64,000 bases of DNA from an uncultured Gemmatimonadaceae bacterium (lineage in GTDB: Bacteria > Gemmatimonadota > Gemmatimonadetes > Gemmatimonadales > Gemmatimonadaceae): the NCBI GenBank assembly GCA_963790305.1, contig CAWBOC010000007.1, positions 96,001 to 160,000 on the forward strand, written 5' to 3'. The number at the start of each line of letters is the position of its first letter. Position 1 is the first letter of the stretch. This document shows, piece by piece, positions 1,721 through 64,000 of the stretch. The notes beneath the pieces are model-generated. The model was not told where the DNA came from. It ran no database searches and worked only from the letters and a program-made list of their open reading frames with translations. Made by a program: the position numbers and the translations under genes.

Positions 1721-2215
1721 ATGCCTTCGATTCGCTGGTTCGCTCTCTGTATCGCATTCGTCCTCCCATCGCCGCTGCTCGCGCAGGGAGCATCCCTTCC
1801 CGCGACGCGGACGATCGCCGAATACAACGTCGATGATGTCACGTTGCGCATCAGCGCCGACGCGCCGCGCGTCGAGGTCTTTCTCTGGCGCAAGCCGCAG
1901 GCGATCGTCGTCTACCTCGACTCGCGATCGATCGAGCGCTGGCTGGATTCGGCGTCCACGTTCATCGCCAGCGACGGGCGTGCGCCTAACGGCGCTCCGG
2001 TCGAACAGTCGACGCGCGTACTCCGCCACGCCGACTCGTCCTATCGCAGCGGACTCGAGCTCACGCGCCGGGCGACTGAGCGCGGCTCGCAGCTCTTCCT
2101 CACGGCCTGGGTGGGCGACCATAGCGCGGCGATGGTCCCGATGCGGAGGTCGCAGGCGCGCGGATTTCTGGCAGCGCTCCGGGAAGCCGCACACGTCGCC
2201 CGACGGCCGCGGTGA
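1721..2215 (+). CDS. hypothetical secreted protein (paralog A)
   Basis: Signal peptide MPSIRWFALCIAFVLPSPLLA-Q; shares motifs with the next gene. Confidence 0.7.
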   Translation: MPSIRWFALCIAFVLPSPLLAQGASLPATRTIAEYNVDDVTLRISADAPRVEVFLWRKPQAIVVYLDSRSIERWLDSASTFIASDGRAPNGAPVEQSTRVLRHADSSYRSGLELTRRATERGSQLFLTAWVGDHSAAMVPMRRSQARGFLAALREAAHVARRPR

Positions 2216-2327
2216 TGGGTTGGGGAGCTGGCCCTCAACCCTATGCCGCTAGAGGTGTTGCCTTTGCTGACGGAGCCCCGTCCTCTAGAGGAAGCCCCGC
2301 GCGTCATGCGCAGCTCTGGAGGAGGCC

Positions 2328-2849
2328 ATGCCCCGCTCGCTCGTTCGCACCGCTCTGCTCATCGCCTTCGTGTTCGGCGCTTCGGCGTCCGCGCAGTCGC
2401 TCGTGCCCGGACAAACGCGGATGCGCGTCGGCACGACGATGCTCACGATTGGCCCCCTTTCCAATGGCAAAGTGCTGGTGGAAGCCTGGCGAGGCATGGC
2501 TCGCATCACGGGCTACGTCGAGGCGGAGCGCCTCGCGCGGTGGACCGACAGCTCCTGGGCACTCGTGGATTCGCACCGGGGCGTCCCGCTGTCGGCCGTG
2601 ACTTACGAGTACGCCGACGGATCGAAGAAGGTCGAGTACAAGTCGCCGTACCTCTTGCTCGGCCGGTCGATGTCCCTGATGATCGACCGCATTGATCAGG
2701 ACAACGTCTCCCGGTACGCGTTCTACGCCGTCGATGGCACGCGCGAGCGGCGTGTCTACATCGTCATGACCCGCAGCGACGTGGCCACGCTGCTGGCGGC
2801 GATGCGGGAGGCGGCCACGGGACAGATAGCGGTGTCGGAGCCGAGGTAA
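2328..2849 (+). CDS. hypothetical secreted protein (paralog B)
   Basis: GGAGG RBS, signal peptide ending ASA-Q. Confidence 0.75.
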   Translation: MPRSLVRTALLIAFVFGASASAQSLVPGQTRMRVGTTMLTIGPLSNGKVLVEAWRGMARITGYVEAERLARWTDSSWALVDSHRGVPLSAVTYEYADGSKKVEYKSPYLLLGRSMSLMIDRIDQDNVSRYAFYAVDGTRERRVYIVMTRSDVATLLAAMREAATGQIAVSEPR

Positions 2850-2888
2850 GAAACCGAGGTGCACCTCGAGCACCTCGAGCACCTCTTC

Positions 2889-4157
2889 TTACCGCCTCCC
2901 GCTCCGCATCACCCTCCAGATTCGCCCGCCACGATCGTCGCTGATGTAGAGCGATCCGTCGGGCCCCACCGCGATTCCCACCGGACGGTGGCGAGCCCCC
3001 GCGGGCTGCACCGAGTCACCGGCGAACCCTGTCGCGAAGATCTCGTGCGGCCCCGCACGGCCCTTCTCGAAGGGAACGAACACGACGTTGTAGCCGCCCT
3101 GCGCGCGAGGGGCGCGGTTCCACGACCCGTGGAAGGCGATGAATGCGCCGCCCCGGTAGCGCGCCGGAAACTGCGTCCCATCGTAGAACGCGAGCCCGTT
3201 AGGCGCCCAGTGCGCCGGCATCGCCGCGACCGGTCCCTTCACGCTCGCGCAGCGCCCGACCTGCTGACCGTCGCCGCCGTACTCGGGCGCCAGGACTTTC
3301 CGCTTCGCCTGCCCGTCGTAGAAGCAGTACGGCCACCCGAAATCATCCCCGCGTCCCACGCGAAAGAGCTCCTCCGCGGGAAGCTCCGCGCTCTCGGTCG
3401 TGTCGAAATGCGCGGGCCAGTTCTGCACCAGATTGTCGCGGCCATGCTGCGCCACCCAGAGTGCACCATCGGACGGATGGATCGTGATCGCGACGGCGTT
3501 CCGGATACCGGTCGCCCAGCGCTCGCCATTGCCCTGGGTCTGCCCCTTGTTCGCTGCCTCGAAGCGCCAGATGCCCGCGCGCGTTTCAAGCTCCGGACAG
3601 GGCGCCTGCCCGGGGGATTGTGGCTGACGGTCCTGGAGCTGACAGGCGTTCGACGGCGAGCCGATGTTCACAAAGAGATCGTTGCCGCGTAACGCGATGG
3701 TCTTCGCGGTGTGACTCCGCCCGGTGGGAAGCGAACCCACCACCGTGTCCGGTGCACCCGTCGGGCGAAGCGCCCCGGGAGAAATCGTGTAGCGCAGCAC
3801 CGCCTCGTCGGTCGCGAAGAAGAGATCGGTGCCTCGGAGCGCGATGCCCGAGCCGCCGTTGTCGCCGAATCGCTCGCGCACGTCCATGCGGCCATCACCG
3901 TTCGTGTCTCGCAACGCAATGGTTGCGCCCTTCACATCGCGCGTGTTCCGGATCGCCACGAACAGATCGCCATTCGGCGCAACGACGATGTGGCGCGCGG
4001 GGCCGAGGCTGTCCGCCACGACGAGCGCGCAGAATCCCTGCGGCAGTGTGATGCCGCCGTTGGTGGTATCGCACGCGACGCGCGACCGCTGCGCTGCAGC
4101 CGATGTGGTGATCGCGGCGGTACATGTGACGGCCGCGATGATGACGGATCGAATCAT
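2889..4157 (-). CDS. PQQ-dependent glucose/sorbosone dehydrogenase family beta-propeller
   Basis: Signal peptide; [42 protein letters not shown] motifs. Confidence 0.88.
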
Positions 4158-6128: not shown

Positions 6129-6162
6129 GGGTCGGGAGTCAGGGACTTCTGACTCCTGACCC
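6129..6162. repeat. heptamer-based (GGAGTCA) inverted repeat
   Basis: gggtcgggagtcag-ggactt-ctgactcctgaccc, 14-bp stem. Confidence 0.75.
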
Positions 6163-6174
6163 TAACGGCAAAGC

Positions 6175-6767: not shown

Positions 6768-6876
6768 TCAGTGCTCCGGGTGGGGCGAGCGTGATGGAGA
6801 CGCACGACGAATTACCGAAGTAACGGGCGGGGTTCGGGGAGGGGTCGGCTTGCTTGGAGACACGAGCCGTTAGGGC

Positions 6877-7007: not shown

Positions 7008-7009
7008 CC

Positions 7010-8740
7010 CTACGAGCTCACCACCGCGCCTTCCGGTCGAGCCGAAACGGGAGCCTCGACGAAGTACGCGTTATACGCGTACTGCATCACCATTCTCTGC
7101 GTGTTGAAGTACGACCCGTTCACCGCAATCGCGTTTCGCATTACCTCGGCGTACGCGTACGGCAGCCCGTAGAACATCGGGAGGATGATCCGCTCCAGCT
7201 TGTCGTAGAGATCGGTCGCGTCTCCGGAGGGATCGCGCGGACGCTCGCGAGTGCCGCCGATGCCCCACCCGGTCGTTCCCTCGTGGCAGCCTTCGATCCA
7301 CCAGCCGTCGAGCACCGAGAAGCTCGGAACGCCGTTGAGTGCCGCCTTCATCCCGCTGGTGCCTGACGCTTCGAGCGGCGGAATCGGATTGTTGAGCCAC
7401 ACATCGCAGCCCGACGTGAGCACGCGGCCCAGGCTCATGTCGTAGTTCTCGAGGTACACCACGCGGACCGCGGCGCCGAGCTGATGCGACGCCTCGAAGA
7501 TCCGCTTGATGATGTCCCGGCCGTTGCCATCGCGTGGATGTGCCTTGCCCCCGTAGACGATCTGAAGCGGCCCGGTGTGCTTCGCGATCGAGCGCAGCCG
7601 CTCGAGATCCGTGAACAGGAGATCGGCCCGCTTGTATGGGGTCGCGCGGCGCGCGAAGCCGATCGTGAACGCCTTGGCGTCGAGCTGAACGCCGGTGCGC
7701 TGCACCACCTCGTCGAGCAGCGCGCGCTTGGCGCGGGCGTGCGCCTCACGAATCTCGTCGAGCGGGATCGTGCAGGCGTGACGAAGGAAGAAGTTGTCGC
7801 GCCGCCACTCGGGAACGAATCGGTCGAAGAGCTCACGGATGGGATCCGATGTCCACGTGACGGCGTGCACGCCATTCGTCACCGCGCTCATCGGGAATCC
7901 CGGGAACATCTCCTGCGACACTTCCTTGTGCCGGTGTGCGACGGCGTTGATGAATCTCGAGCACCGGAGCGCGAGATACGTCATGTTGAGCTTGCCGTCG
8001 TGCCAGAGCTCGGCGGCATCGAGCAAACCCGCGATGCGTGCGCCGAGGATCGCGCGCGCCAGGTCAGCGGGGAACGCGTCGTGACCCGCGGGGACGGGCG
8101 TGTGTGTCGTGAAGATGCACTGCCGCGCCACCGCTTCGATGTCCCCGACCGTCGGTGCGCGCTCTCCGCCGAGGCGCCGCTCGAGAAGGCTGAGGATCAG
8201 GAGCGACGCGTGACCTTCGTTGATGTGGTGCTGAAGCGGCTTGCCCGGATACAGCTGGGCCAGCAGCGCCGCACCGCCCATGCCTAACACGACCTCCTGG
8301 CAGAGCCGGTAGCGCGGATCGCCGCCGTACAGCGTATCGGTCAGGCCACGATCCGCTTCCGAGTTTTCGGGAAGATTGGTGTCCAGCAGATACACCGGTA
8401 CCTCGTGGTGCGACACACCGCGCACCGTGTACCGCCAGGCCCGAACCTGAACGGGGCGCCCCTCGATCTCGACCGTGACCCGGCCCGGAGCCTCGGGAAG
8501 CGTGTTCTCCGGAAACCACTCGGCGGGACTCTCGGACTGGTTTCCGTGCGTGTCGAGATGTTGGCGGAAGTATCCGCGGCGGTGCGCGAGGGTGACGCCG
8601 ACGACGGGCAGCGCCAGATCGGCCGCCGACCGCAGCGTATCGCCGGCGAGAACGCCGAGACCGCCGCTATAGGTGGGTAGCGTCTGCTCGAGGGCGATTT
8701 CCATCGAGAAGTACGCGACGCGAGGTGGAGCAACGGACAT
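7010..8740 (-). CDS. glgP: alpha-glucan phosphorylase
   Basis: YFSME, YSGGLGVLAGD, NEGH, FTTHTPVPAGHD, GFARR, EASGTSGMK. Confidence 0.95.
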   Translation of the reverse strand: MSVAPPRVAYFSMEIALEQTLPTYSGGLGVLAGDTLRSAADLALPVVGVTLAHRRGYFRQHLDTHGNQSESPAEWFPENTLPEAPGRVTVEIEGRPVQVRAWRYTVRGVSHHEVPVYLLDTNLPENSEADRGLTDTLYGGDPRYRLCQEVVLGMGGAALLAQLYPGKPLQHHINEGHASLLILSLLERRLGGERAPTVGDIEAVARQCIFTTHTPVPAGHDAFPADLARAILGARIAGLLDAAELWHDGKLNMTYLALRCSRFINAVAHRHKEVSQEMFPGFPMSAVTNGVHAVTWTSDPIRELFDRFVPEWRRDNFFLRHACTIPLDEIREAHARAKRALLDEVVQRTGVQLDAKAFTIGFARRATPYKRADLLFTDLERLRSIAKHTGPLQIVYGGKAHPRDGNGRDIIKRIFEASHQLGAAVRVVYLENYDMSLGRVLTSGCDVWLNNPIPPLEASGTSGMKAALNGVPSFSVLDGWWIEGCHEGTTGWGIGGTRERPRDPSGDATDLYDKLERIILPMFYGLPYAYAEVMRNAIAVNGSYFNTQRMVMQYAYNAYFVEAPVSARPEGAVVSS

Positions 8741-8752: not shown

Positions 8753-11362
8753 TTATTCGCCAATGAGCACGGCTACCGGAAGCGTGAGAAACACCTCACG
8801 CGCCAGCAGCGTGGCACCGCCTTCAGCATTTTGTGTTTCCACGGCGCGCCCGGTGAGCGCGCACCGCCAGCGACGGGGGACATCGCTTCGAGGAAACATG
8901 ATCTCGGAGTCTCCCCACGCCAAGCCCGTCGGAATGCCTACGGTTCCAGACAATCGGACAGGCAGGCGCGTCACGGCGACGACGACCGTGGCTCCCTCGA
9001 AGGAGCGAGTGAAGGCGATGGCGTGGGCCGCGCGTTCGCCGCGGATGTCCAGGGAGACGTATCTGCCTCGCGTGAAGACCGGAGTCATCTCACGACGAAG
9101 ATGGAGCGCGGTACGCGTCACGTGCATCTTGAGCCGGCTGTCGGCGACGGTGCGCAGCATCTCCGCGCATGCCGCCGCGACATCGCCGCCGTCGAGCGTG
9201 GCGTCGAGTCGATCGAGCGTGGCGCGACGTGCCTCGAAGTCTACCTCGCGACGGTTGTCCGGATCGACCAGCGCGAAGTTCCACATTTCATCCCCCTGGT
9301 AGATGTCGGGGGTGCCCGGCGCCGTGAGGTGCACCAACAGTCGCGACAGGGCGTTACAGTATCCGGCAGGTGCCACGCGGCTCGCGAAGGTGGCCAACTC
9401 CGTCGCGAAGGTTTCGTTCTGCAGTGCGGCGCCGATATACGCCCGCACGGCGTTCTCATAGGCTTCGTCCGGTGACGTCCAGCTGGTGCGGACTTTCGCC
9501 TCACGATTCGCCTTGACCATGTATTCGACGATGCGGTCCTTCACTGCGCCCGCGGCCGCCGGGGGGGCTTCCTCCGCGGGCCATATGCCGAGCATCGTCT
9601 GGTAGATGAGCCACTCCGTCGAGGCGTCCGGGGCTGCGCCGCCGCGACCTTTCGCTCGATGGGACGCCAGCAGACGTCGCCAGCGGCGCACCGAGCGCAG
9701 CCACTCGTCCGGCATCTCACTCAGGACGTCGATCCGCGAGCGGACATCGGCGCTCCGCTTCGTATCGTGCGTCGACGTGCAGAGGAGGGAGCGCGGCCAT
9801 CGATTCTGGCGCTCGCGGTTCGCACGGTGCAGGTCGGCGACGGCGCGGGGCAGATCACGCGCGGGATCGCCGCCGACTTCGTTGAGCGACGCCAGCGGCA
9901 CATAACGATAGAGCGCGGTGTCCTCGACGCCTTTTGCCGTCGCCGGCCCGCTTGTCTGCTGGAGCCTCCCGATGAACTCGCTTGCGTGCTCATCCGGGGA
10001 TTCGAGCACCGCCGCGAGGCGATTGAGCTCGTGACTGCCTTTCCACCGCTCCCGAACGCGCGCGAGGGCGCGCTCGATGACCTCGCGATCATCACCGTGA
10101 ACGGTGCCCCGTCCGTCAATGTAGGTTCGATACACCGGCAGCGTCGCAATGAAACGACGAATGGCCGCCGCGGCCCCGGCCGCCGCCGCTCCCCGTCGCA
10201 TTCGCCGCGCACGACGGAACAGCTTCGTCAGGCGAGACACATCCGCGGCGAGCGCGGCGCGCAGCACGAGCTCCTTCCCGCGAACGGCCGCCTCTTCGAT
10301 TCCCCCACGGCCGCGAGCGCCGACCAGGCGCCGATAGCCGTCGTCGAGACGCGACGCGCCCTCGGCCGCGATGAATGCAGCCTCCAGCTCATTGAGGAAC
10401 TCGTAGCCCGTCGTTCCCTGCACGGGCCAGCTCTCGCGCAGCCGCTCTCCGGGGGAGAGAATCTTTTCGACGACGATCGGGACCGGATCGGCCGTGGATG
10501 GACGACGTCCCGCCACCTCGACACGCAGCGCGTCGAGGTAGGCCTGCGGATCGAGAAGCCCATCGATATGGTCGATGCGCAGTCCATCGATTACGTCATC
10601 CTCGACCCACTGAAGCACGAGCGCATGCGTCTCGCGGAACACCTCCGGGTCGTGCATGCGAAGCGCGATGAGGTCGTTGACGTCGAAGAACCGGCGATAG
10701 TTGATCGCGATCAATGCACGCTTCCAGAACGCGAGCCGGTACCACTGCGCGTCCACGAGCTCGCGCATCCGTGCCCGACCCTGCTTTCCTTCGTGCCACC
10801 GGGACAGGTCCGCACGCCCAAGCTCGCTCTCGGTTTCGCGCGCTACCGGAAAGGTTTTGTCGAAGTACTTGAGACGAATGCGGGCACCCTGTCGCTGGAG
10901 TGAGAGCTCGCCGCGATCCAGCACTGCTTCGAGGGTGTCGCCGAGAACGGGAACGAGAACGCGGCCCTGCAGAGATGATCGCTCCGACTCCCACTCGACA
11001 TCGAACCAGCTCGCCCACCGGGAGCGCCGACCGTTGGCCAGCATGTCCTCCCAGTAGGGATTGTCGGCACCGGTACCCATGTGGTTAGGCACGATATCGA
11101 GCAGGATTCCCATCCCCCGACCGCGAAGCTCGGACGCGAGGCCGCGCAGCTCATCCTCCGACCCGAGCTCCGGGTTGAGGCGTGTCGGGTCGGCGACATC
11201 GTATCCGTGGAGACTTCCAGGCCGGGCCGCGAGCAGCGGAGACGCGTAGATGTGCGACACGCCGAGACGCTCGAGATACGGCACCAGCCCGCGCGCATCC
11301 TGGAGCCGAAAGCCCGCGTTGAACTGGAGGCGGTAGGTCGCCGTCAGCGCGAGGGAACCCAT
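8753..11362 (-). CDS. treY: malto-oligosyltrehalose synthase
   Basis: ATYRLQ, HGYDV, DIVPNHM, INYRRFFD, GLRIDH.DGL, AKGVEDT, LVDPDNRR. Confidence 0.95.
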   Translation of the reverse strand: MGSLALTATYRLQFNAGFRLQDARGLVPYLERLGVSHIYASPLLAARPGSLHGYDVADPTRLNPELGSEDELRGLASELRGRGMGILLDIVPNHMGTGADNPYWEDMLANGRRSRWASWFDVEWESERSSLQGRVLVPVLGDTLEAVLDRGELSLQRQGARIRLKYFDKTFPVARETESELGRADLSRWHEGKQGRARMRELVDAQWYRLAFWKRALIAINYRRFFDVNDLIALRMHDPEVFRETHALVLQWVEDDVIDGLRIDHIDGLLDPQAYLDALRVEVAGRRPSTADPVPIVVEKILSPGERLRESWPVQGTTGYEFLNELEAAFIAAEGASRLDDGYRRLVGARGRGGIEEAAVRGKELVLRAALAADVSRLTKLFRRARRMRRGAAAAGAAAAIRRFIATLPVYRTYIDGRGTVHGDDREVIERALARVRERWKGSHELNRLAAVLESPDEHASEFIGRLQQTSGPATAKGVEDTALYRYVPLASLNEVGGDPARDLPRAVADLHRANRERQNRWPRSLLCTSTHDTKRSADVRSRIDVLSEMPDEWLRSVRRWRRLLASHRAKGRGGAAPDASTEWLIYQTMLGIWPAEEAPPAAAGAVKDRIVEYMVKANREAKVRTSWTSPDEAYENAVRAYIGAALQNETFATELATFASRVAPAGYCNALSRLLVHLTAPGTPDIYQGDEMWNFALVDPDNRREVDFEARRATLDRLDATLDGGDVAAACAEMLRTVADSRLKMHVTRTALHLRREMTPVFTRGRYVSLDIRGERAAHAIAFTRSFEGATVVVAVTRLPVRLSGTVGIPTGLAWGDSEIMFPRSDVPRRWRCALTGRAVETQNAEGGATLLAREVFLTLPVAVLIGE

Positions 11363-13519
11363 TGTCGCTCCACGCCCAGCGCGCGACGGACCTCGGCGCT
11401 CTCGCTCATTTCCTCGAGACTCATCGTCATTCGTCGCGTCCAGCTGGGCCACTGAGCGGCCGCTACGCCGGGAAGGTTTACCGGCTCGACTTCCCCAGTG
11501 AGGTCGTCGAGCGAAAGTCCCACCAGCCAGGACGGCGTGCGCCGCAGGAACGTGTGAACCGCTTCACGCAGCGCCAGGTCGGTGGTCGGCTCCTCGTTCG
11601 CCGGCCAAAGGCCCTCCTCAATGAGCGTCGTCGCGAGCGCCTCGCGCGCCTGGGCCCGCTCCTGTCGCGCCCCTGCCACCGCACGCTGCGTGGGAATCGC
11701 TCCCACCTTCGCGCGCAGATCAATGTCGCTCTCCCGCCAGAATGCCGCGATCGTCGGCATGTCGTGCGTATTGGCTGTCGTCAGCGCGAGCGCGGGATAC
11801 GCGCGAGGGGGCTTGAACCGCCCACCCTTCGGCTCCGATTCGAAGTACATCACTTTCGAAGAGAGGACGCCCCACCGCTCGAGTGCCGGGGGAACCTCTG
11901 GTGGCACGGTGCCGAGATCCTCACCCACGATGAGAGCGTTGGCACGCACGCTCTCGAGCGCCGCGATGCCTAACAGGTCGTCGCCGGGAAAGCGCACGTA
12001 GGCGCCATCGCGGCCCTCCATGCGCGCGTGGAATCCAGAACTGCCGAAAGAGTCCGAGGACGTGGTCGATGCGCAGCGCGCCGGCGTGTCGAAGCGCCGC
12101 CCGCACCAGGCGCACCCAGTACGCGTACCCATCCTCGGCCAGCCGATGCGGGTTGATCGCCGGAAGCCCCCAATTCTGCCCCGCGGCCGCATAAGGGTCG
12201 GGCGGAGCGCCGATCGTCGGGCCATCGAGAAAGAGTCCCGGATGCATCCACGTGTCGCTGCCGTCTCGCGCTGCCCCAATCGCCAGGTCCTGATACAGAC
12301 CGACGGGCAGCGACAGCTCGCGCGCGCGCGCCTGCGCGTCGCCGAGCTGGCGGTCGAGCTCGAACTGTGACCACTGATGAAAGCGGACGCGCTCGCGCTC
12401 TTTCTCACGAAACGCCTTCACCGCGCGTCCGCGCGGATCTCGCAGCTCATTCGGCCACTCCTGCCAGGGCATACCCTGCTGCCGCTCGTCGAGCGCGCAC
12501 CAGGTGGCAAAGTCCTCGAGCTGCTCCCCCTGTGATTGGACGTACCGCGCGAACGCCCGACCACGTTCCGTCTTCTTTCCTTCGTGGTTCTCCATGAATG
12601 AGCGATGGAGGGCCTCGAGGACCGGGCGCTTCATCCTCATCACCGCCTCGTAGTCCACGTGCGATGCATCGCGCAGCTCGGCGATGCGCGGGAGGGCGCG
12701 AGCCGTCAGCGTTCGCGCATCCGCGCTGTCCGCCATCTCGGGCACCGCATCGACGTCAATGTAGAGAACATTCCCGAAGAGCCGGCTCACCGGGCCGTAG
12801 GGTGAGATGTCGTGACCCCGGTTGCGCAGCGCGTGCAGCGGATTCACGCCGACGAAAGCGGCGCCAACGTCGGCGGCCCACTCGGTGAGCCGAGTGAGAT
12901 CGCCAGTGTCGCCAACACCCCAGTTCCGCGCGCTCCGCAACGTGTACACGTTGGCGGTGAGACCCACGACGCGCCGTCCGCCAAGCAGGTCTTCGGGCGC
13001 GGCGCATTTGCGAGGCACGACGATCAGCCGCTGTGTCCCCTCCACCGACTGACCACGCGCACGTGCCGTTAGGCGCACGGTGTGGTAGCCAGGGCCGGGT
13101 GCCGCATCCAGCGGGATGTGGATCTGCCCGCGCGCGCTTTTGGTCGTGCGGCCCGCGCGCCGGACGGTTCTCCCCTGCTCATCTTCGAGCTCCACCTCCC
13201 ACTCGACGCGCGACGGCCAGCCGCGTGGAAGAGTAATCGCAATCGGCGCGGAGGCATCGGCGGTAACGCGAACCGGAGGCAGCAATTGCTCGTGCGCACG
13301 CTCGCGAAGCGCGACCAGCGCGTCGGCGGCAGCAGCGTCATCGGACACGTCGTAGCCCATGGAGCTGAGCAGCGCGGCGCGTGTACGATCGCTCGTGGCC
13401 CGCCGCTCCTTCCCAGTCTGGTCGACGTACTCGGCAATGATCCCCACCCGGTCGGCGAGCGCGCGCAACGCGCTGGCCCTGCGTCTTCCGGAGTGCTTAC
13501 GAGGTGCCATTCCCACCAT
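11344..13519 (-). CDS. malQ: 4-alpha-glucanotransferase, apparent frameshift near 12025
   Basis: WGVGD, NPLHA, SPY, YQDLA.G, GAPPD, GQNWG, RIDH; continues in another frame with GEDLGTVP, THDMPT, NLPG. Confidence 0.92.
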
Positions 13520-34193: not shown

Positions 34194-34429
34194 CAGGGTG
34201 GGTTCCGGAAGGGTCGCGCGTTAGGCGGGGCGCGCGTCTGGAAAAGAAAAGTCGGGCAGCTCGCATGAATCACGATCCGCCCGACTTTATCGATCGATCC
34301 AACTTAAGAGAGAGTGCCGCCCGACATGTGAGCCTCCTGAGGACGTGGATTTGCCATTCTGTTCACGCCTCCCCTTGCTCGCTAAACTATGCGCCCCCGG
34401 CGATCCGTCAATGGTATCCCTCCGAGGCA

Positions 34430-45145: not shown

Positions 45146-45208
45146 GCGGGCTATCGACTTGTTAGGCTTTCACCCACAACGATCCGAAGCGATGCGGCGT
45201 GCGGCGAT

Positions 45209-49083: not shown

Positions 49084-49171
49084 CCGGCGAGACTGGTTCG
49101 TGCTAGATGCCATCGAGCTGCTCGGCCGGGTGCGCCAGCGACAGCCTCGATGATCGAGACGACGGAGATCG

Positions 49172-49525
49172 TTAGGGACGTTTCTGCACCATATAGGTAC
49201 GCCCGCTGGATCCGAACGTAAGGATCATTTGCGTCCTCGACGTGAACCTTCCATCGAGCACTCCTCCATCGTCGAACGCGATCCGAAGGGTCGTGCCGGT
49301 GATTGTCGCACGCCCCTGGCGCTCTACGCCTGACAAGCGAAGCCGCGCACGAAGCTCGGATGCGTCCGACGTGAATACGAGGTTGATGGGCGGAAGAGAC
49401 TCTGTCGGCCGTTCCCACTCGCCCACGACCGTCTCCGGACTGGGCGTGTTGACTGGCTCGCAGGCAGGCATGGCGGCGATGAGTAGTGCAGTCACCGTGA
49501 CAACCGCGCAGCGACGCATGCTCAT
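49172..49525 (-). CDS. hypothetical lipoprotein
   Basis: AGGAG RBS, signal peptide ending MPAC, VVGEW beta-barrel-like start. Confidence 0.7.
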   Translation of the reverse strand: MSMRRCAVVTVTALLIAAMPACEPVNTPSPETVVGEWERPTESLPPINLVFTSDASELRARLRLSGVERQGRATITGTTLRIAFDDGGVLDGRFTSRTQMILTFGSSGRTYMVQKRP

Positions 49526-49600: not shown

Positions 49601-52324
49601 TTACGGCCGCCGTAGCATCTTCTCCAACAGCTCCTGAGCCCGGGGATCGTCGCTCTCGCCGAGGCGCCGCAACGCCCGGATCCGCACCTCCCGATTGGGG
49701 TGCGAGCGCGCCGCCTCCATGAGCGCCGGGATGCCGGCGCCGTTGTCCAGCTCCTCCAACGACTGCAACACCTCATTGTAGACATCTTCCCCCACATCGC
49801 CGGCGAGGATCTCGGTCAGCAGCTTCACCGCGGCATTGGCGGGGGCGTTCTCGGCATACGTCTCGATCGCCTCGCGCTGCACGTCGGGATGCGCGTGACG
49901 CCGCGCGATGGCCGCAACCCGCTCGAGGCTACGCGCGTCGCCCATTTCGCCAAGCGTCTCGACCGCTTCCCGCGCCGCGTCCGGGTCGTCGCCGTCGCGC
50001 GTCAACTCGTCGAGGATGCCGATGACGCTGTCAGTCCCGCCACTTTCGCCCAGCGTTTCGATCGCTTCACGCCGCACGTCTCGGTCAGGGTGCGTCCTCG
50101 CAAACCTGGTGAGCACGGCCACCGCGCCCTCCGTCTTCACCTCACCGAGCGCCTCCACTGCCGCACGCTGCACATCGCTCTCCGCGTCGTTCGTCGCGAT
50201 CGCTTCGAGCAGAGTGACCGCCTCCGCGGCGGGGAGATGCTCGCCGAGCGATTCCACTGCCTCGCGCCGGATGTCGGGATGACCGTGCGTGCGCGCGAGG
50301 TCTCGGACCGCGGGGAGACCGCGGCCGTTCGGCATTTCCCCGAGCGCTTCTACCGCCTCCCGCTGTACGTCGACGTTCCGGTCATCCCGCGCGATCGCGA
50401 GGAGCGCGGCCAGCGCCCGATCGTTGTCTTTCTGTCCCAATCCCTCGACCGCCTCGCGCCGCACCTCCACGTCGTTCGCCGTGCGCGCGATCGCGATTGC
50501 CGAGTCGGTCGACGCGGGTGCGGCGCTGTCGCCAAGCGCCTCCGCAGCTTCGCGCCGCACCTCCCTCTCCGCGTCGCTCCGCGCCGCCCGACTCAGCGCA
50601 TTCACCGCCTCCGCGGTGGGATGGAACCCGAGCCACTCGGCCGCCTGCGCGCGAAAGTCGGCGCGCTCGCGGCCGGTGAGCCAGCCTATCAGAATCGGGA
50701 CTGCGAGATCGCTCGAGCCGTGAATGGCCACGGCCCCGACCATGTCTTCGCGGAGACGGGGGTCCTGCGTGGCGGAGAGCAGTCCCGCGGCGAGCGGGAC
50801 GCTCTCCGCGTCCGCGGCGTCCCCCAGCCAGAACAGGGTGCGATTGGCGAGGTCGACGGGGAGATGGAAGCTGGCGATGTGCACACGCACGAGACGCGAG
50901 CCGTCAAACCCGAATAGCATCGAGATGTCGTCGGAATCGCGGGTGCCGAGCAGCGGGGCCAGCCGCGAGCCGCGGAACTTTAGTCCCTCGAAGTCGCCGA
51001 ACATGCGGCCGCTGAGCGTGACGTTCCGACCGGTCACGCCGATCTCGCGATCGATGTAGACCGAATGCTCGAGCCAGGCCGGCCGCGGGATCCGATAGCC
51101 GATCCAGTACATCCGGCGGTCGAGCCGGCGCGCCTGCGCGTGGGCCCACTCCCAGCGCTGCGTGAGCGGCCGGCTGGGATCGGGGTGCTGGATGACGGTG
51201 TCGACCGCGGTCTGCGTCGTATCCGCGCGCTGTCCTTCCACGAGCGTGATCGGGGAGTTCAGTGAGGGTGCGGACGCGGCGGCGCGCGCGCCCCCCGCGC
51301 CGAGCAGCGCAACCGTGACGGCGATGACGCCGGCGATCCAGGGCGCGGAGATCTCCCGCCGAGTCGAGCCGGGGAGCACGAGCCGCTGCACGCAATGCAG
51401 GAGCGAGCCTCCGCTGGCCGCGAGCGCAAGGTTCGGCGGCTCGCTACGCAGCCGCTCCATGCCGACCAGCGCCGTCGCGTAGACATGCGCATCGCCCGCG
51501 ATCCGCACGACGAGATCGTCGCAGCAGTGCTCGCGCTCTTCGCGGATTCGCCGCGACACCCACCAGACGGCGGGATGGTAGAACAGGAGCGTCTCGACGA
51601 CCGACTGCGCCACGTTCACGAGATAGTCGTAGCGGCGCACGTGGGCCAGCTCGTGCGCGATCAGCAGCTCGAGCTGTTGCGGCGAGAGTCCGGTCAGTGC
51701 GCTTGCCGGCACGAGAATCACGGGACGCAGCCAGCCGACGACGGCGGGCACCTGGATCAGGGCGGACTCGAGCAGCGCGACTGGCCGGCGCACACGCAGC
51801 CGGGCCGTTAGGCGCTCGAGCATCGCGACGAGCGCGGCGGGCGCCGGCGTCGTGCCGTGCGTGCGCAGCGTGCGCGCCGCGGTCCACCCGCGCGCCAATC
51901 GGATCGAGAAGACGACGACGCCGACGACCCAGACGAGCACCAGCCACGGAAGCGCCGGATCGAGCAGCCTCCGAATCCCGGACAGGCGGGTTGCGATCGT
52001 CGCCACCCGAGTCACGGGGGCTGGGGCGGTCGTGACGGCAGCGGCATTGTCGGCCCCACTCTCATCGTCGCGCGTGGTGACGGGCGCTACGCCGGCGTCG
52101 GCCGCCGCGATCGCGACGGCCGGAGGCTGCGCCCGCTGCAAGCGCGCGGCGGTGACGATGGGCAGGACCAGCATCGCGGCGAGCGTCGCGAGGGAGAGCG
52201 CATACCGGGTTCGTGCGGCGGTTTGCCGGGTGACCGCGAGCGCGGCGGCAAGGAGGACGGCCAGCGCCGCGCCTTGCCACAGGAAGTGCACCAGCGCCCA
52301 GCCGAGGGCCTGTGTTGCGTTCAT
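49601..52324 (-). CDS. BlaR1-like M56 metallopeptidase with ~12 C-terminal HEAT repeats
   Basis: LVHFLWQG, HELAH, FYHPAVWW, ERE.CCDD; repeats of V.REAVE.LGE. Confidence 0.9.
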   Translation of the reverse strand: MNATQALGWALVHFLWQGAALAVLLAAALAVTRQTAARTRYALSLATLAAMLVLPIVTAARLQRAQPPAVAIAAADAGVAPVTTRDDESGADNAAAVTTAPAPVTRVATIATRLSGIRRLLDPALPWLVLVWVVGVVVFSIRLARGWTAARTLRTHGTTPAPAALVAMLERLTARLRVRRPVALLESALIQVPAVVGWLRPVILVPASALTGLSPQQLELLIAHELAHVRRYDYLVNVAQSVVETLLFYHPAVWWVSRRIREEREHCCDDLVVRIAGDAHVYATALVGMERLRSEPPNLALAASGGSLLHCVQRLVLPGSTRREISAPWIAGVIAVTVALLGAGGARAAASAPSLNSPITLVEGQRADTTQTAVDTVIQHPDPSRPLTQRWEWAHAQARRLDRRMYWIGYRIPRPAWLEHSVYIDREIGVTGRNVTLSGRMFGDFEGLKFRGSRLAPLLGTRDSDDISMLFGFDGSRLVRVHIASFHLPVDLANRTLFWLGDAADAESVPLAAGLLSATQDPRLREDMVGAVAIHGSSDLAVPILIGWLTGRERADFRAQAAEWLGFHPTAEAVNALSRAARSDAEREVRREAAEALGDSAAPASTDSAIAIARTANDVEVRREAVEGLGQKDNDRALAALLAIARDDRNVDVQREAVEALGEMPNGRGLPAVRDLARTHGHPDIRREAVESLGEHLPAAEAVTLLEAIATNDAESDVQRAAVEALGEVKTEGAVAVLTRFARTHPDRDVRREAIETLGESGGTDSVIGILDELTRDGDDPDAAREAVETLGEMGDARSLERVAAIARRHAHPDVQREAIETYAENAPANAAVKLLTEILAGDVGEDVYNEVLQSLEELDNGAGIPALMEAARSHPNREVRIRALRRLGESDDPRAQELLEKMLRRP

Positions 52325-53783: not shown

Positions 53784-53813
53784 GACAGCTACACTCGCGA
53801 GTCCGCCACTCGT

Positions 53814-57049: not shown

Positions 57050-57068
57050 ACTCACACCGGCCAGGCGC

Positions 57069-60199: not shown

Positions 60200-61852
60200 G
60201 TGCGTTTCACTGTCGTGCGATCCCTTGGCCTTGTCGCCGTAGCCGGACTACTCAGCAGTTGCAATCCGGATCGGCCGTTCCCGACCGAAGGCGACCTCCC
60301 GGCATTGGCGTCGAGCAGCGCCGGCACTCCTGCGGCGCCATCCAGCCTCGCCGCGAGCGCCGTCTCGCCTGGCCAGATCGATCTCGCATGGCGTGATAAC
60401 TCGGCCAATGAATCCGGGTTTGAGGTTCGAGGCTCCTCGGATGGACCTAACGGCTCGTTCACGCTCTGGTCGACAACACCTGCGAACACCACCGCCACGA
60501 GCTTCGCCGGCCTCGGGCCCTCGGAGACGTATTGCTTCAAGGTTCGCGCGTTCGTCACGAAGGGGAAGCAGCTCCATTACTCCGCGTTCTCCAACGCTTC
60601 GTGTGCGACGCTCTCGCCCGCGCCGAGCGCTCCGTCGGGAACCGGGGCCAAGGCCGTCAACAGCACGTCGGTCGGAATCACCTGGACCGACAACTCGAGC
60701 AACGAGGAAGGCTTCCGCGTGGAGCGTGCCGCCGGTGGCTGCGCCGCGACATGGGTGACTGCAGGGGCGACCGGCGCGAACGTCACGTCGTTCATCGACG
60801 GGGGACGGGTCCCGGATCAGGTCGTCTGCTACCGTGTGCGAGCCTTCCATGGTTCGAGCTCCTCCGCGCCATCGATCGAGGCCACGACCGTGCCGCCGAC
60901 AGCGCCGACGAGTCTCACGGTCTCGCGAGCCAGTGCGATGCCTCACCGGGCGATCGACCTGAAGTGGCTCGATAACTCCAGCGCCGAGGACGTCTATCAG
61001 ATCCAACGCGCCCCGTCGGCCGGCGGCCCGTACGAGGCAGTGAGGTATGTCGAGGTCAACTCGACGACCTATCGCGACACCGGCCTCGTCAGCAACACCA
61101 CGTACTGGTATCGCGTGCGCGCCGGCCGAAATACGGGATTCTCAGACTTCTCGAACGAGGCGTCCGCGACCACGGATCCCGCGCCCGCTCCTGCAGTACC
61201 CGCGACGCCGGAAGCCGCCACGGCCGCACCGGCAGGCAGCGCAGTCGCGACCATCAGCTGGACCGACCCCTCCTGGGATGAGGACGGCTTCCGCGTCGAG
61301 CGCTCCCTCGACGGCGGCGCGAGTTGGAGCGTCGCCGGGTCGACCGCCATCGGCGTGACATCGCTGTATGACCATGGGCAACGGAGCGAGGTGGAGCTCT
61401 GTTATCGCGTGACCGCCTTCAACGCCCAGGGTGACTCGCCGCCATCGAACGTCGACTGCACGAGACTGCCCGCAGCGCCGAGTGATGCCAGGTTCACGAC
61501 CGCCAACTCGTTCTTCTGGAAGGACAACTCCGGCACCGAAACCGGTTACCAGATCTGGTACTGCAACGAGGCGATTGGTTGCGATCACCTCGTAAGCCTG
61601 CCGGCGAACTCGCAGAGCTACGAGCCATCGTCGGTCATCCCGAGCGGGTTCTACTACCTTTTCGCCACGTATGACGGGGGCATGTCTGACGAGGTGCTCT
61701 TCGTCGAGACGTCGGGCGAAGGCATTGCCTGGTCAGCGAGCACACGGACGAATCCGCATCGCGCAACCGACATCGCGCCACGTGTGTGTGTACGTCAGTC
61801 TGGCCGGGACAATGTCATTGTCTCTCTTCGGCGCGGAGGTGTGTCATGCTGA
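60200..61852 (+). CDS. fibronectin type III repeat lipoprotein
   Basis: AGGAGG RBS, lipobox LSSC; 4-5 repeats of W.DNS..E.GF..ER...Y.YRVRA. Confidence 0.85.
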   Translation: MRFTVVRSLGLVAVAGLLSSCNPDRPFPTEGDLPALASSSAGTPAAPSSLAASAVSPGQIDLAWRDNSANESGFEVRGSSDGPNGSFTLWSTTPANTTATSFAGLGPSETYCFKVRAFVTKGKQLHYSAFSNASCATLSPAPSAPSGTGAKAVNSTSVGITWTDNSSNEEGFRVERAAGGCAATWVTAGATGANVTSFIDGGRVPDQVVCYRVRAFHGSSSSAPSIEATTVPPTAPTSLTVSRASAMPHRAIDLKWLDNSSAEDVYQIQRAPSAGGPYEAVRYVEVNSTTYRDTGLVSNTTYWYRVRAGRNTGFSDFSNEASATTDPAPAPAVPATPEAATAAPAGSAVATISWTDPSWDEDGFRVERSLDGGASWSVAGSTAIGVTSLYDHGQRSEVELCYRVTAFNAQGDSPPSNVDCTRLPAAPSDARFTTANSFFWKDNSGTETGYQIWYCNEAIGCDHLVSLPANSQSYEPSSVIPSGFYYLFATYDGGMSDEVLFVETSGEGIAWSASTRTNPHRATDIAPRVCVRQSGRDNVIVSLRRGGVSC

Positions 61853-62424
61853 CGCTCGCAAGACCGGTCGCGGTAGTCGGGCTGGTTGCGCTCCAAGCGT
61901 GCTTCGATGCCTCGCGCGATCCGGTGGCCACCGAACCGCCGGCGTTAGGCGGGGTAGCGCCGGCGTTCGCGATCGAGAACGGAGACCCCGGGCGGCGGAT
62001 CTTCCTGCGCGACCAGTGCGACCCGACGGACCCGACGTGGGCAGGTGGGTGCAGGCTGCCGAAGGGGAACGTCACTGTCGCCGAGTTCCAGGCGGCGTTC
62101 GCGGAGCACGGGGGGCATCCGCTGTGGCGGTTTTCTCCGATCGCGGCGGCCGTCGAGAGCGGGGAGACGCTCGAGATCGTGAACGTGGGCGGCAGGGTGC
62201 ACACCTTCACCCGCGTCGCCGCATTCGGCGGAGGGGCGGTCCCTGGGCTGAACAACGGTCAGCCGACGATCCCGGAGTGCCGAACTCCACCCCCGCTCGT
62301 GCGCGTCCTGCCGCAGGGCACGTCGTCGATCACCTTCACCGGTAGTGGGGAGCAGCTCTTCATGTGCTGTTTTCATCCGTGGATGCGGTCGATCATTCAC
62401 GTCAGGGAGCACCAAGGGAGCTGA
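61846..62424 (+). CDS. cupredoxin-like lipoprotein
   Basis: GGAGG RBS, LQAC, HTFT and C-x2-H-x2-M (CCFHPWM). Confidence 0.75.
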   Translation: MLTLARPVAVVGLVALQACFDASRDPVATEPPALGGVAPAFAIENGDPGRRIFLRDQCDPTDPTWAGGCRLPKGNVTVAEFQAAFAEHGGHPLWRFSPIAAAVESGETLEIVNVGGRVHTFTRVAAFGGGAVPGLNNGQPTIPECRTPPPLVRVLPQGTSSITFTGSGEQLFMCCFHPWMRSIIHVREHQGS

Positions 62425-62435
62425 AGCGGGCGTTC

Positions 62436-62507
62436 GAGTGGAGAGTGGAGAGTGGAGAGTGGAGAGTGGGGAGTGCACTCCCCACTCCCCACGCCCCACT
62501 CTCCACT
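62436..62507. repeat. GRGAGTG heptamer palindrome
   Basis: (gagtgga)4 gagtggggagtgcactccccactcccc... centred on GTGCAC. Confidence 0.85.
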
Positions 62508-64000
62508 ACCTGGCCAGCGGATCCGGCCGGAGCTGGAACCGGTACGCCTTGGGGGTGGTCCCCTTCCCCCCTCCATATGGAAGGGCGCGCGCGTGCTGAT
62601 GGTGGCCCAGAGACCCCGCCCCTTCCAGCCGGCGTCCGCATCGTCGATGCGGCCGTCGAGCCACTTGGTGTAGAACCCCATCGGATACGGCACACGAAGG
62701 ACGACGAACTTGCCGTCCTTCAGGACGAGAAGCCCTTCGGACTGGTTCCCTGTGTTGATCGGCACGTTCTCGCCGAGGCCGAGCGTGTTGAACTGGTCCA
62801 CCCAGGTGTAGTAGCTCCCTTCCCCACCACCCGGACTGGTGACGTTGCCGAGCTGCGGGAGAGGCTCGACGTAGAAGGTCCATCCCCTCCGGACAGTGCT
62901 GGCCCGTCGCGTTAGGCCCGTTGAGCGGTCCGCGGCACTTGCGCCGGTCGAAGCTGGCCATGTGTCCGCTCGCCAGCGCGGCCCAGTACACGCCGTTCCG
63001 ATCTACGTCACCGCCGCGCGGAGAGAAGCCCGCGTTCGCGACGGCCGGGTTGTTCCACGGTACCTCGAAGACCTCGGTGAGCGCGGTCTCGGACGGATTC
63101 GCGCCGGGGGTCATCCGGAATACCGCGCCGGGGAACCCGAACATCGTTCCCCACACCGATCCGTCCGGCGCCGGCGCCAGCGCGTACGGACCGCCGCCGT
63201 ACTGCCCCGGCTGAATGCGCTTGTCCTTGGTGGGATCGGCGGGCGCGTTAGGCTCGACGTACTCGTCGCGCCGACCGTTGCCGTTCATGTCCATGATCAG
63301 CGGGGTCCATCCCTGCGCCCTTTCCTCGTCGCCCGTCTCGTCCCACAGCCTGGTGTTCAACCACCCGATTACCTGCCCGCCACCGCTCGTCCACAGCGTT
63401 CGGTTGGCATCCTCGGCGAACATCAGGTGGTGCGTGCCGAAGCAGGTGCCGACGTGTTTCAGCTCCTTCGTCTTTGGATCGTACACGGCCAGGTGGCGGC
63501 CGGAGTTGTTGAGCGGGAAGACGCGAGCCGACGGATGGCTCGACCCCGCCTTGCAGAAGTCCGGGTTGTCGGGCGGACGAACCCTGGAGGTGATCCAGAC
63601 GCGCCCCGTCTCGTCGAACATCGGGTTGTGCACGTTCGCCTTGCTGGTCCAAATCGCCTCGGTGGACCAGTAGGGCGAGGGGCCAGCCACCTGCGGCGGC
63701 GCGGCCCGCGGAGTGTTGGGATCGCGCACCGTAACCGGCACTCGCGTCACCGTATGGGTCGTCGGGTCGAGCACCGGCATGTAGTCGGCGCTCGCCTCGA
63801 GCACGCCGTACACCAGACCGTTCGCGTTGACGGTGGGATTGCGGCGGTCGGTCGAGACCAGGTCGTGCATGTACGCTTTCGGGTCGGCCCAGTCCCACAT
63901 GGTGATGACGACGTTGCGCTCGATCCCCTGCGGGCGCGGCGGCGTGGGCGGGACCTCGCCCGACGCGATCCGGTCGGTCCAGTCGGCGAACATCCGCAGC
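62506..64000 (-). CDS. conserved large beta-propeller protein ('carboxypeptidase regulatory-like domain' family), 5' partial, frameshifts near 62880 and 62575
   Basis: FADWTDRI, RPQGIERNVV.T.WDW, TCF.THHL, LRVPYPMGFY.K, FQLRPDPLA. Confidence 0.7.
   Translation of the reverse strand, partial: LRMFADWTDRIASGEVPPTPPRPQGIERNVVITMWDWADPKAYMHDLVSTDRRNPTVNANGLVYGVLEASADYMPVLDPTTHTVTRVPVTVRDPNTPRAAPPQVAGPSPYWSTEAIWTSKANVHNPMFDETGRVWITSRVRPPDNPDFCKAGSSHPSARVFPLNNSGRHLAVYDPKTKELKHVGTCFGTHHLMFAEDANRTLWTSGGGQVIGWLNTRLWDETGDEERAQGWTPLIMDMNGNGRRDEYVEPNAPADPTKDKRIQPGQYGGGPYALAPAPDGSVWGTMFGFPGAVFRMTPGANPSETALTEVFEVPWNNPAVANAGFSPRGGDVDRNGVYWAALASGHMASFDRRKCRGPLNGPNATGQHCPEGMDLLRRASPAARQRHQSGWWGRELLHLGGPVQHARPRRERADQHREPVRRASRPEGRQVRRPSCAVSDGVLHQVARRPHRRCGRRLEGAGSLGHHQHARALPYGGGKGTTPKAYRFQLRPDPLAR

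Follow-up and report, generated by a model that had tools for sequence, protein, structure and literature searches.

A clade-restricted octamer in Gemmatimonadales genomes and phages as a possible Chi-like 'self' signal

The word in the window

G000 is a metagenome-assembled genome of the Gemmatimonadaceae (4.31 Mb in 13 contigs, 66% GC), and the window analysed here is a 64-kb stretch of it, G000:C7:96001-160000. Among its genes are those for a phosphorylase, MalQ, GlgB, an isoamylase-like protein, a Ser/Thr kinase, an Asn-synthase-like protein and an M56 peptidase, names that were proposed in an initial annotation made from the letters alone and that are backed by Pfam. Scattered through and between these genes is a short word, the 7-mer GTTAGGC (GCCTAAC on the opposite strand). 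The 17 exact copies listed in that annotation all lie where it had placed them, 12 on the + strand and 5 on the − strand; dinucleotide-preserving shuffles of the window gave a mean of 2.54 and a maximum of 6, and 0 of 100 reached 17. The rough zero-order expectation of ∼ 7 copies was therefore too high (shuffle mean 2.5). Twelve of the 17 copies extend to the 8-mer CGTTAGGC (shuffle mean 1.01, maximum 4). Six GTTAGG[G/T] variants (4 on +, 2 on −) had also been located correctly, and taken alone they are not beyond chance in the window (6 versus 2.68; 7 of 100 shuffles reached 6). The sites are given below with the codons they occupy and, as 'kept', the number of relatives of the same genus in which the 7-mer is intact.

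1984..1991, − strand: CGTTAGGC; no gene in the crude calls
3197..3204, + strand: CGTTAGGC; inside a GSDH-like open reading frame (ORF), 2889-4502 (−)
8282..8288, − strand: GTTAGGC with T before; GTG-TTA-GGC (Leu-Gly), sense strand of a phosphorylase-like gene, 7010-8740 (−)
11084..11090, + strand: GTTAGGC with G before; CCT-AAC (Pro-Asn) in an alpha-amylase-family gene, 8753-11452 (−)
11968..11974, − strand: GTTAGGC; GTT-AGG-C (Val-Arg) in MalQ, 11921-13519 (−); kept in 4/5
13067..13074, + strand: CGTTAGGC; CGC-CTA-ACG (Leu-Thr) in MalQ (−); kept in 4/5
15292..15299, + strand: CGTTAGGC; CCT-AAC (Pro-Asn) in GlgB, 13943-15874 (−); kept in 1/5
17410..17417, − strand: CGTTAGGC; sense strand of an isoamylase-like ORF, 16753-18153 (−); kept in 1/5
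27323..27329, + strand: GTTAGGC; CAG-TTA-GGC (Leu-Gly) in a Ser/Thr kinase-TPR gene, 26394-28562 (+); kept in 0/4
29916..29923, + strand: CGTTAGGC; CCT-AAC (Pro-Asn) in a GT2 glycosyltransferase gene, 29041-29925 (−); kept in 2/4
34219..34226, + strand: CGTTAGGC; ∼ 40 nt upstream of the Asn-synthase-like gene (34265), outside called genes; kept in 2/2
35934..35941, − strand: CGTTAGGC; CGC-CTA-ACG (Leu-Thr) in the Asn-synthase-like gene, 34265-36220 (+); kept in 1/2
45161..45167, + strand: GTTAGGC; no gene in the crude calls
51806..51813, + strand: CGTTAGGC; CGC-CTA-ACG (Leu-Thr) in an M56 peptidase/HEAT gene, 49601-52645 (−)
61943..61950, + strand: CGTTAGGC; ∼ 90 nt beyond the end of an fn3-domain gene, outside called genes
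62910..62917, + strand: CGTTAGGC; GGG-CCT-AAC (Pro-Asn) in an ORF from 62506 to the end (−) with no Pfam family; kept in 0/4
63246..63253, + strand: CGTTAGGC; GAG-CCT-AAC (Pro-Asn) in the same ORF, 62506-end (−); kept in 1/4
6160..6166, − strand: variant GTTAGGG; outside called genes
6869..6875, + strand: variant GTTAGGG; edge of a palindromic repeat (6870-7010)
26112..26118, + strand: variant GTTAGGT; TAC-CTA-ACG (Leu-Thr) in a gene at 25583-26191 (−)
35278..35284, + strand: variant GTTAGGT; GCG-TTA-GGT (Leu-Gly) in the Asn-synthase-like gene
49171..49177, + strand: variant GTTAGGG; outside called genes
60445..60451, − strand: variant GTTAGGT; GGA-CCT-AAC (Pro-Asn) in the fn3-domain gene, 60092-61852 (+)

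Wherever gene calls cover the sites, the codon readings first proposed (TTA-GGN, CCT-AAC and CTA-ACG) are borne out; a fourth frame, GTT-AGG (Val-Arg) at 11968, had been overlooked. The conserved Pro-Asn at 11084 is written CCT-AAC in G000 and CCG-AAC in most relatives, one synonymous change apart, and at 27323 the relatives carry TTG-GGC or CTG-GGx. Copies thus arise by point substitution, mostly synonymous, rather than by insertion. With the window aligned to five genomes of the genus (69-91% DNA identity), the 7-mer was intact in 21 of 50 site-by-genome comparisons (14 of 28 in a first subset), which are not independent of one another, against 24.4% for all 7-mers (37,976/155,766) and 26.2% for those with three A/T. 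The conservation in orthologues that had been suggested as a check is therefore present at 21/50 versus 24-26%; this is a real excess of moderate size, with considerable turnover.

Positions 1-40 kb of the window are collinear with these five genomes, and 44000-64000 has few syntenic matches. The repeat at 6870-7010 is an intergenic palindrome of ∼ 130 bp, resembling miniature inverted-repeat transposable elements (MITEs) or repetitive extragenic palindromes, with dozens of matches on both strands (72-94% identity) in each of five genus genomes. The stretch at 52-60 kb has a GC content of 0.71-0.73 and zero copies of the word.

Genome-wide enrichment, spacing and distribution

In the whole of G000, GTTAGGC occurs 1105 times (534 on +, 571 on −) against Markov expectations of 152 (order 1), 87 (order 2) and 96 (order 3). 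By z-score it ranks first among the 16384 7-mers at orders 1 and 3, and third at order 2 after CGTTAGG and its complement. CGTTAGGC is the top 8-mer, with 855 copies versus 44.3 expected (order 3), and the variant CGTTATGC is also raised (253 versus 35 genome-wide; ∼ 3-fold over the synonymous shuffle described below, on both strands). A logo of 1547 GTTAGG sites has C at −1 in 79% and C at +6 in 71%, and otherwise only the 3-base periodicity of coding DNA. Because the flanks are uninformative beyond these two positions, CGTTAGGC is a discrete word and a longer repeat element is ruled out. Its density is ∼ 1 copy per 4 kb in G000 and reaches ∼ 1 per 0.8 kb in relatives. Other over-represented words of G000, TCCGCATT (628 versus 98) and the AGAGGCGCTA(G)AGGC family (166 versus 53 for the 10-mer), are probably pieces of intergenic repeat elements, since most of their copies lie outside called genes.

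Frame use was assessed on 3009 genes, called crudely by a simple codon-usage score and covering 77% of G000. The 1105 copies divide into 424 read as xxG-TTA-GGC, 67 as GTT-AGG-C, 140 as xGC-CTA-AC and 176 as xxG-CCT-AAC, and the other 298 are at the edges of called genes or beyond them. Each of the four stop-free frames is occupied, and the two stop-creating frames hold 0 copies. A synonymous-codon-shuffled null and the share of TTA, CTA and CCT codons lying inside the motif had been named in the initial annotation as tests that could refute the enrichment, and neither refutes it. In 60 shuffles over the called genes the sense strand gave 30.0 ± 5.0 copies (maximum 41) versus 495 observed, a 16-fold excess, and the antisense strand 51.1 ± 6.9 (maximum 70) versus 317, a 6-fold excess. 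GTTAGGC contains 426 of the 1051 TTA codons (40.5%), 140 of the 1751 CTA codons and 177 of the 5170 CCT codons. Measured per synonymous opportunity, the word is used in 5.6% of cases as TTA-GGC (426/7587), 2.9% as GTT-AGG (69/2397), 8.4% as CTA-AC (140/1670) and 14.1% as CCT-AAC (177/1257). Use per opportunity is thus higher for the antisense strand, so that the surplus of sense copies comes simply from the abundance of Leu-Gly dipeptides. From the excess over the synonymous shuffle and the use per opportunity it follows that the word acts at the DNA level and on both strands, in keeping with the frame-independent enrichment first noticed in the window. A tRNA-Leu with anticodon UAA was found in G000, so TTA is decodable.

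Gaps between copies in G000 look exponential overall (coefficient of variation (CV) 0.98, largest gap 30 kb); no periodic spacing is seen in this genome, only a short exclusion zone. Gaps of < 250 bp number 16 versus 68.3 expected for the 7-mer and 5 versus 42.1 for the 8-mer, and gaps of < 100 bp number 3 versus 28.0. The deficit affects both arrangements alike: pairs < 100 bp apart number 8 versus 28.2 in the same orientation and 9 versus 28.4 in opposite orientation, pairs at 100-250 bp 25 versus 42.4 and 18 versus 42.9, and only 5 convergent pairs lie 30-160 bp apart. Avoidance of clustered rare codons could be an alternative cause. In a 200-kb sample of the richest relative, G016 (6360 copies in all), GTTAGG occurs at 2.07 per kb, CGTTAGGC is present 248 times versus 5.1 expected and the logo is as in G000; gaps of < 200 bp number 35 versus 75.3 expected, and the CV is 0.76-0.85. 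Copies per gene in G000 are Poisson-distributed or slightly under-dispersed (9 genes with three or more, versus 16 expected), and none of the called genes is unusually rich in the word. Word density declines very little with compositional oddness (Spearman −0.04); only the six windows with GC < 0.62 are low (1.17 versus 2.56 copies per 10 kb), and the largest word-free gap in G000 is a low-GC polysaccharide gene cluster of an exchangeable kind. An 8-kb word-free stretch in G016 was considered as a special island; it contains ordinary accessory genes.

The word is confined to part of one order. Among 41 relatives, enrichment is seen in each of the 8 further genomes of the genus (382-1006 copies versus 211-366 of a reversed control word), and G012, G021, G022, G036 and G040 carry 345-605 copies each. 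Most of the other relatives have 5-65 copies, below the reversed control; for most relatives of like GC the figures are 6-50 versus 100-400. An even sample of the phylum comprised 401 genomes, 266 from the order Gemmatimonadales and 135 from outside it. At least 100 copies per Mb were found in 17 of the 266, at least 30 per Mb in 7 more, and neither in any of the 135 genomes of other families, which upholds the lineage specificity proposed for the word. These tallies take in the unpublished genomes G015, G085, G203 and G124, all of them word-poor rows, and no single claim depends on them.

Mapped on an RpoB tree of 57 genomes, the rich state must have changed 9 times or more, and well-supported branches force 7 or more of these changes; with shuffled labels the average was 18.6 changes and 0 of 500 shuffles was as low. 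The tree leaves out G015 (unpublished), G004, G005, G007, G012, G017, G018 and G153 (no match at 1e-100) and G002 (partial). Word-rich genomes are found as inner clades within family f1, in a single clade of f2 (g75 with g87) and in g24/g26 of f3; nested among them are the word-poor lineages G011, G292, G068, G009, G095 and G013. A different 'dialect' in word-poor relatives was sought in 100-kb samples of G010 and G026 and no comparable word was found, at modest power (in 100 kb of G000 the real word itself reaches only z 12.5).

Phage polarity and host nucleases

Viral sequences in IMG/VR were scanned twice for two 8-mer copies 300-330 or 450-480 bases apart, so that the phages described here were found by the word itself. 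The scans gave at least 159 loci of at least 3 kb, at least 17 of them integron arrays and at least 19 with six or more dispersed copies. The most informative is the viral record G419, 57,794 bp long with direct terminal repeats and rated 100% complete by CheckV, which encodes terminase, portal, protease, capsid, sheath, baseplate and fibre proteins as well as Erf, an exonuclease and a helicase. GTTAGGC is its top strand-specific 7-mer, with 32 copies on + versus 1.3 expected (25-fold) and 1 on −; for GTTAGG the ratio is 35:1. Around the copies the sequence reads T(C/T)GTTAGGC, and the flanks are random otherwise. Genes supported by PHROG matches lie on + at 3.4-38.3 kb and on − at 40.9-56.5 kb, and the polarity of the word ignores this switch: all 10 copies at 39-57.8 kb are on +, written CCT-AAC inside minus-strand genes, and in plus-strand genes the copies read GTT-AGG or TTA-GGC. 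Gaps average 1.6 kb (CV 0.65, smallest 249 bp), and the GC skew is positive throughout. Because the word is 25-fold enriched, evenly spaced and co-oriented across both gene directions, G419 suggests a directional reader inside the cell.

Other viral loci have one-sided counts of 23:2, 7:20, 13:2 and 3:11. The locus with 23:2 (L378) has nearly all its long ORFs on + and so offers no test of independence from gene direction. The record G420 (72% complete) has 19:9. The provirus G418 has 13:14 at 1.06 per kb, arranged in two opposite blocks, mostly + to ∼ 14 kb and mostly − beyond, with 15 of 18 copies antisense to local genes by crude gene-strand calls. A search for the host of G419 through its TerL gave < 48% identity to any cultured phage. 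G419 further has genes for a 7-deazaguanine DNA-modification set (QueE-like, GTP cyclohydrolase and TGT-like proteins), for three proteins with ParB-like/methyltransferase domains, for an anti-restriction protein and for an Erf-exonuclease pair.

Host chromosomes present a different picture. The initial annotation had counted 16 of its 23 window sites on the + strand; the count is right and the excess is local, the whole genome having 534:571. Bins of positive GC skew in G000 give 259:243 and bins of negative skew 275:328, and the arms of contig C5 that flank a GC-skew switch give 51:62 and 66:69. With smoothed skew, 323 copies versus 256 lie on the G-rich strand (55.8%), the same sign as in the phage, the skew being weak and the strand assignment noisy. 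The sense fraction is 63.5% in replication-co-oriented genes versus 56.2% in counter-oriented ones (Fisher p 0.08). Twenty 20-kb samples of a rich relative with a complete 5.3-Mb chromosome (G303) gave 130:120 and no domain structure. A polarity of the type of FtsK-orienting polar sequences (KOPS), which point strongly towards dif in each replichore and had been among the systems suggested at first, is excluded in the hosts, and replication skew of the Chi type is at best faint.

None of the families tested as a reader in the 41 relatives (Vsr, RecC, ComEC, ComEA, PilQ, the integron integrase and one minor pilin) tracks the word. Vsr-type very-short-patch repair was rejected as a candidate, being present in 3/41 relatives, all word-poor, and absent from G000; RecC was found in 1/41. 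ComEC (41/41), the ComEA-type HHH_3 domain (41/41), a PilQ-like secretin (40/41) and one G000 minor pilin (39/41) are shared by rich and poor genomes. In G000 there are 14 prepilin-type genes. It also has two similar type IV pilus clusters (G000:C3:166600-187700 and C11:32500-43400), each with minor pilins and a 662-aa PilQ-like secretin, which are either a real duplication or two assembly haplotypes.

The PDDEXK_1 nuclease domain (AddA/AddB/AdnAB/RecB type) has 0 matches in G000. Paired AddAB-like loci (two adjacent ORFs of ∼ 1000-1250 aa) are present in 8 of the 23 word-poor relatives (G010, G011, G013, G018, G026, G032, G034 and G035) and in 0 of the 18 rich or intermediate ones; G021, G036 and G038 have only weak or contig-end PDDEXK_1 matches. 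Across the phylum sample (threshold E ≤ 1e-15) the domain is present in 124/135 genomes outside the order versus 53/265 inside, and the word is enriched only inside. The order has thus largely lost nucleases of the AddAB/AdnAB/RecB type. Within it, PDDEXK_1 was found in 1 of the 17 rich genomes (G218) versus 52 of the 249 others, and in 4 of the 6 nested word-poor lineages. Six informative sister contrasts on the RpoB tree point in one direction, the poor side with and the rich side without PDDEXK_1, with exceptions in contrasts 4 and 5.

Contrast 1: G292 (poor) versus three rich g44 genomes
Contrast 2: G095 (poor) versus G303 (rich)
Contrast 3: G013 and g30 (poor) versus the G016 clade (rich)
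Contrast 4: G035 (poor) versus g75 (rich), G218 being the exception
Contrast 5: g19 (poor, 3/4 with nuclease) versus g24/g26 (rich, fragments only)
Contrast 6: G011 (poor) versus G131 and G020 (rich)

It is possible that the word and AddAB-type nucleases are mutually exclusive.

What may read the word

We tentatively place first, while holding it to be short of probable, a reading of CGTTAGGC as a Chi-like 'self' signal that is read by an enzyme other than the known Chi readers, probably for telling own from foreign DNA during recombination. It is ranked first because the phage polarity does not fit uptake and because the rich lineages lack the known Chi readers while poor sisters have AddAB-type enzymes; and the reader would not be a known one because word-rich lineages are without a RecBCD or AddAB/AdnAB-type nuclease. 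The enrichment with its frame and strand pattern, the partial conservation, the distribution over clades, the polarity in the phage and the lack of AddAB-type nucleases in rich genomes are direct observations; we infer from them that a protein reads the word, that orientation matters to it in the host too, and what such reading does. In such a scheme, mostly synonymous point substitutions would create copies wherever the frame allows, and selection or transmission bias would keep them. An enzyme would track along DNA from an end, read the word in one orientation and be switched by it from degrading DNA to protecting or recombining it; this reader would be the machine that replaced the role of RecBCD/AddAB. 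A chromosome with random two-ended breaks would need both orientations everywhere, which is the host pattern, and a phage exposing one end of its replicating or packaged DNA would need a single orientation, which is the phage pattern.

The comparison with Chi is close in several respects. Both words are short, asymmetric, among the most over-represented of their genome and rarer in acquired DNA. E. coli Chi is reported at ∼ 0.2 per kb with an observed-to-expected ratio (O/E) of ∼ 2.3, and the densities found here, 0.2-1.25 per kb, span the range given for Chi in the same source (PMC3784561). Phages are described there as enriching the host's Chi and so escaping RecBCD (PMC3784561). Take-up by a phage in one orientation is matched here by the 32:1 of G419. 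Unlike in Chi systems, the rich genomes lack RecBCD/AddAB/AdnAB-type enzymes, apart from the single PDDEXK_1 match noted above, and the hosts are almost without leading-strand skew.

Several observations weigh against this Chi-like reading. With O/E values of 19-49 the word is far above E. coli Chi, its density differs tenfold between lineages, replichore polarity is nearly absent in the hosts, and no reader was found among the families tested. The close-pair deficit is independent of orientation, so that one copy of either orientation seems to meet the local need. The nuclease association is post hoc and weak in raw counts, and most word-poor genomes of the order are also without a PDDEXK_1 nuclease. 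Finally, the phages were found via the word, so that its occurrence in G419 may coincide with another host's signal.

The same letters also occur at integron cassette boundaries. Same-strand clusters of the 8-mer in word-poor relatives are integron cassette arrays, in which attC sites of ∼ 85-125 bp run from GCCTAAC to exactly CGTTAGGC; the 7-mer does fit the integron core GTTRRRY, as pointed out at the start. Long arrays lie in L001 (1-20000), L002 (1-8000, G027:C95), L003 (1-8000, G025:C3) and L004 (1-6500, G027:C80), with cassettes of 0.5-1.1 kb and an IntI remnant at G027:C80:6419-7148, and integrons are reported from the phylum Gemmatimonadota (PMC8618304). Cassette boundaries are described as defined by GTTRRRY, with attC spanning RYYYAAC to GTTRRRY (PMC3053210), and this, together with the attC sites of the relatives, the 17 of 159 viral loci among the matches listed that are integron arrays (GC 0.48 to 0.67) and an intact IntI gene in G000 (C9:694984-695919, 448.9 bits, a 355-aa open frame), could make the dispersed copies secondary recombination sites at the core where IntI cuts. 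IntI presence does not track the word, however: above the curated cut-off it is found in 28/41 relatives (12 among the 18 that are rich or intermediate, 16 among the 23 that are poor), and the richest genome, G016, has only a frameshifted remnant. IntI is therefore not the driver. Moreover, cassettes that insert and excise precisely leave no scar behind, and their insertion into genes would do harm. Unlike attC, in which GTTRRRY is paired with RYYYAAC in an imperfect palindrome of 57-141 bp, the dispersed copies stand singly within conserved genes and have neither partner arm, hairpin nor conserved flank; no attC-type pairs built on the word were found in G000. We consider IntI sites very improbable and largely refuted. 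Downstream of the G000 IntI gene there are four ∼ 47-nt repeats ending in GTTAGGG (698853, 699369, 703000 and 710801) on the same strand as intI, an unusual layout.

The host data alone fit a DNA-uptake sequence (DUS) or uptake signal sequence (USS), whose copies would be spread as a molecular drive by uptake preference and homologous recombination; this explanation is possible and comes close behind the Chi-like one. It would account for a word that is hyper-abundant whatever the strand and the open frame, and also beyond the called genes, and that is lineage-restricted and partly conserved. The orientation-independent close-pair deficit fits a fragment needing no more than a single copy; in H. 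influenzae, uptake is reported not to increase when two USS lie within 100 bp of each other (PMC7811141). The polysaccharide cluster that forms the largest word-free gap is of an exchangeable type, and ComEC, ComEA-type and PilQ-like proteins are nearly universal in the 41 relatives. However, the tested competence genes do not follow the word, no candidate uptake receptor that goes with it was found among the tested families, and our literature search found no report of transformation for Gemmatimonadota. Drive does not predict a complete phage with a 25-fold, 32:1 co-oriented word, nor does it account for the link with absence of AddAB-type nucleases, given that RecBCD is retained in Neisseria and Haemophilus. 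Like the DUS of Neisseriaceae (receptor ComP) and the USS of Pasteurellaceae, as described in PMC2817400, PMC3630211 and PMC1939737, the word is non-palindromic, present on both strands and inside genes, partly against codon habits, lineage-specific and without chromosome-wide orientation bias. Unlike them, it is patchy within a family and strictly polar in a phage, terminator-type close inverted pairs are scarce, and close pairs are 4-fold depleted, with 5 convergent pairs only, versus 23% of H. influenzae USS reported to lie within 100 bp (PMC7811141). It is unlikely, though worth weighing, that the word is instead an asymmetric modification site: a methyltransferase (Type III, Type ISP or BREX-like) would mark GTTAGG on one strand, methylation-dependent repair, recombination or transformation would favour the word, and phages would keep a single orientation and so evade enzymes whose cutting requires two unmodified sites placed head to head. 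Strict single orientation of sites indeed lets phage T7 evade the Type III enzyme EcoP15I, and the patchy clade distribution suits a mobile driver. Such evasion explains the polarity of the phage word, not its 25-fold enrichment on one strand, and hosts generally avoid restriction sites instead of accumulating them; Vsr, as noted, occurs in word-poor relatives only. The cyanobacterial HIP1 (GCGATCGC) is a parallel, an octamer likewise over-represented tens-fold (15-300-fold for HIP1), conserved, non-randomly spaced and not a peptide or RNA motif (PMC5861425). HIP1 has been tied to methyltransferases (PMC4390886) and to transformation, and is now also proposed to serve DNA uptake (PMC13756078). 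One-letter variants of our word fall mainly at the ends of the 8-mer, and Elhai describes the same for HIP1; unlike HIP1, which is palindromic and has known cognate methyltransferases, CGTTAGGC is asymmetric.

Landing sites of a nucleoid-organizing or DNA-wrapping protein, held by weak selection at a preferred spacing, appear improbable. They would suit the more even than random spacing in two lineages (most marked in the CV of G016), the depletion of close pairs whatever their orientation and the slight under-dispersion of copies per gene, and HIP1 has been proposed to act in chromosome structure (PMC5861425). Against them, the gap CV of G000 indicates a short exclusion zone and no periodicity, an orientation-blind binder would not give strict phage polarity, and thousands of weakly useful sites in rare codons would be hard to maintain by selection on each. 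The absence of any function, with the word as a by-product of codon-pair, dinucleotide or mutational context, is hardly credible. Context biases are strong in high-GC genomes and rare sub-words such as TTAG inflate ratios; yet the word exceeds the synonymous shuffle 16-fold on the sense and 6-fold on the antisense strand, occupies all four frames and uncalled DNA, and in most relatives of like GC does not rise above the baseline. A purely mutational origin is disfavoured because it would not give the close-pair deficit, and with partial conservation added we count this explanation as refuted.

We speculate further, on a proposal that is distinctly unlikely as a whole, that AddAB-less Gemmatimonadales run an undescribed end-tracking machine for repair or defence that recognizes CGTTAGGC: the chromosome would carry both orientations, phages would copy the protective one, and the inverted pair of words in attC would make cassettes 'self'.

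Literature searches found no published description of the word; among the matches listed, GTTAGGC appeared in primers, and the Gemmatimonad matches were unrelated. What is new here is a word at 32:1 on one strand of a complete phage, together with the lack of AddAB/RecBCD-type nucleases in rich lineages and their presence in poor sister lineages. To our knowledge, the genome-wide 'self words' understood so far are few (Chi, DUS/USS, KOPS and HIP1 in part), and each led to DNA-handling machinery. The word described here is a very strong one in a little-studied soil phylum, with 40% of the rarest leucine codon spent on it, and it offers two handles for testing, the phages that carry it in one orientation and its possible mutual exclusion with AddAB-type nucleases. 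If it served DNA uptake, it would be the first uptake sequence outside Proteobacteria; if the Chi-like reading is true, it would mark a Chi-like system without RecBCD or AddAB; and if cassettes also pass as 'self', cassette traffic would be linked to the host's test for its own DNA.

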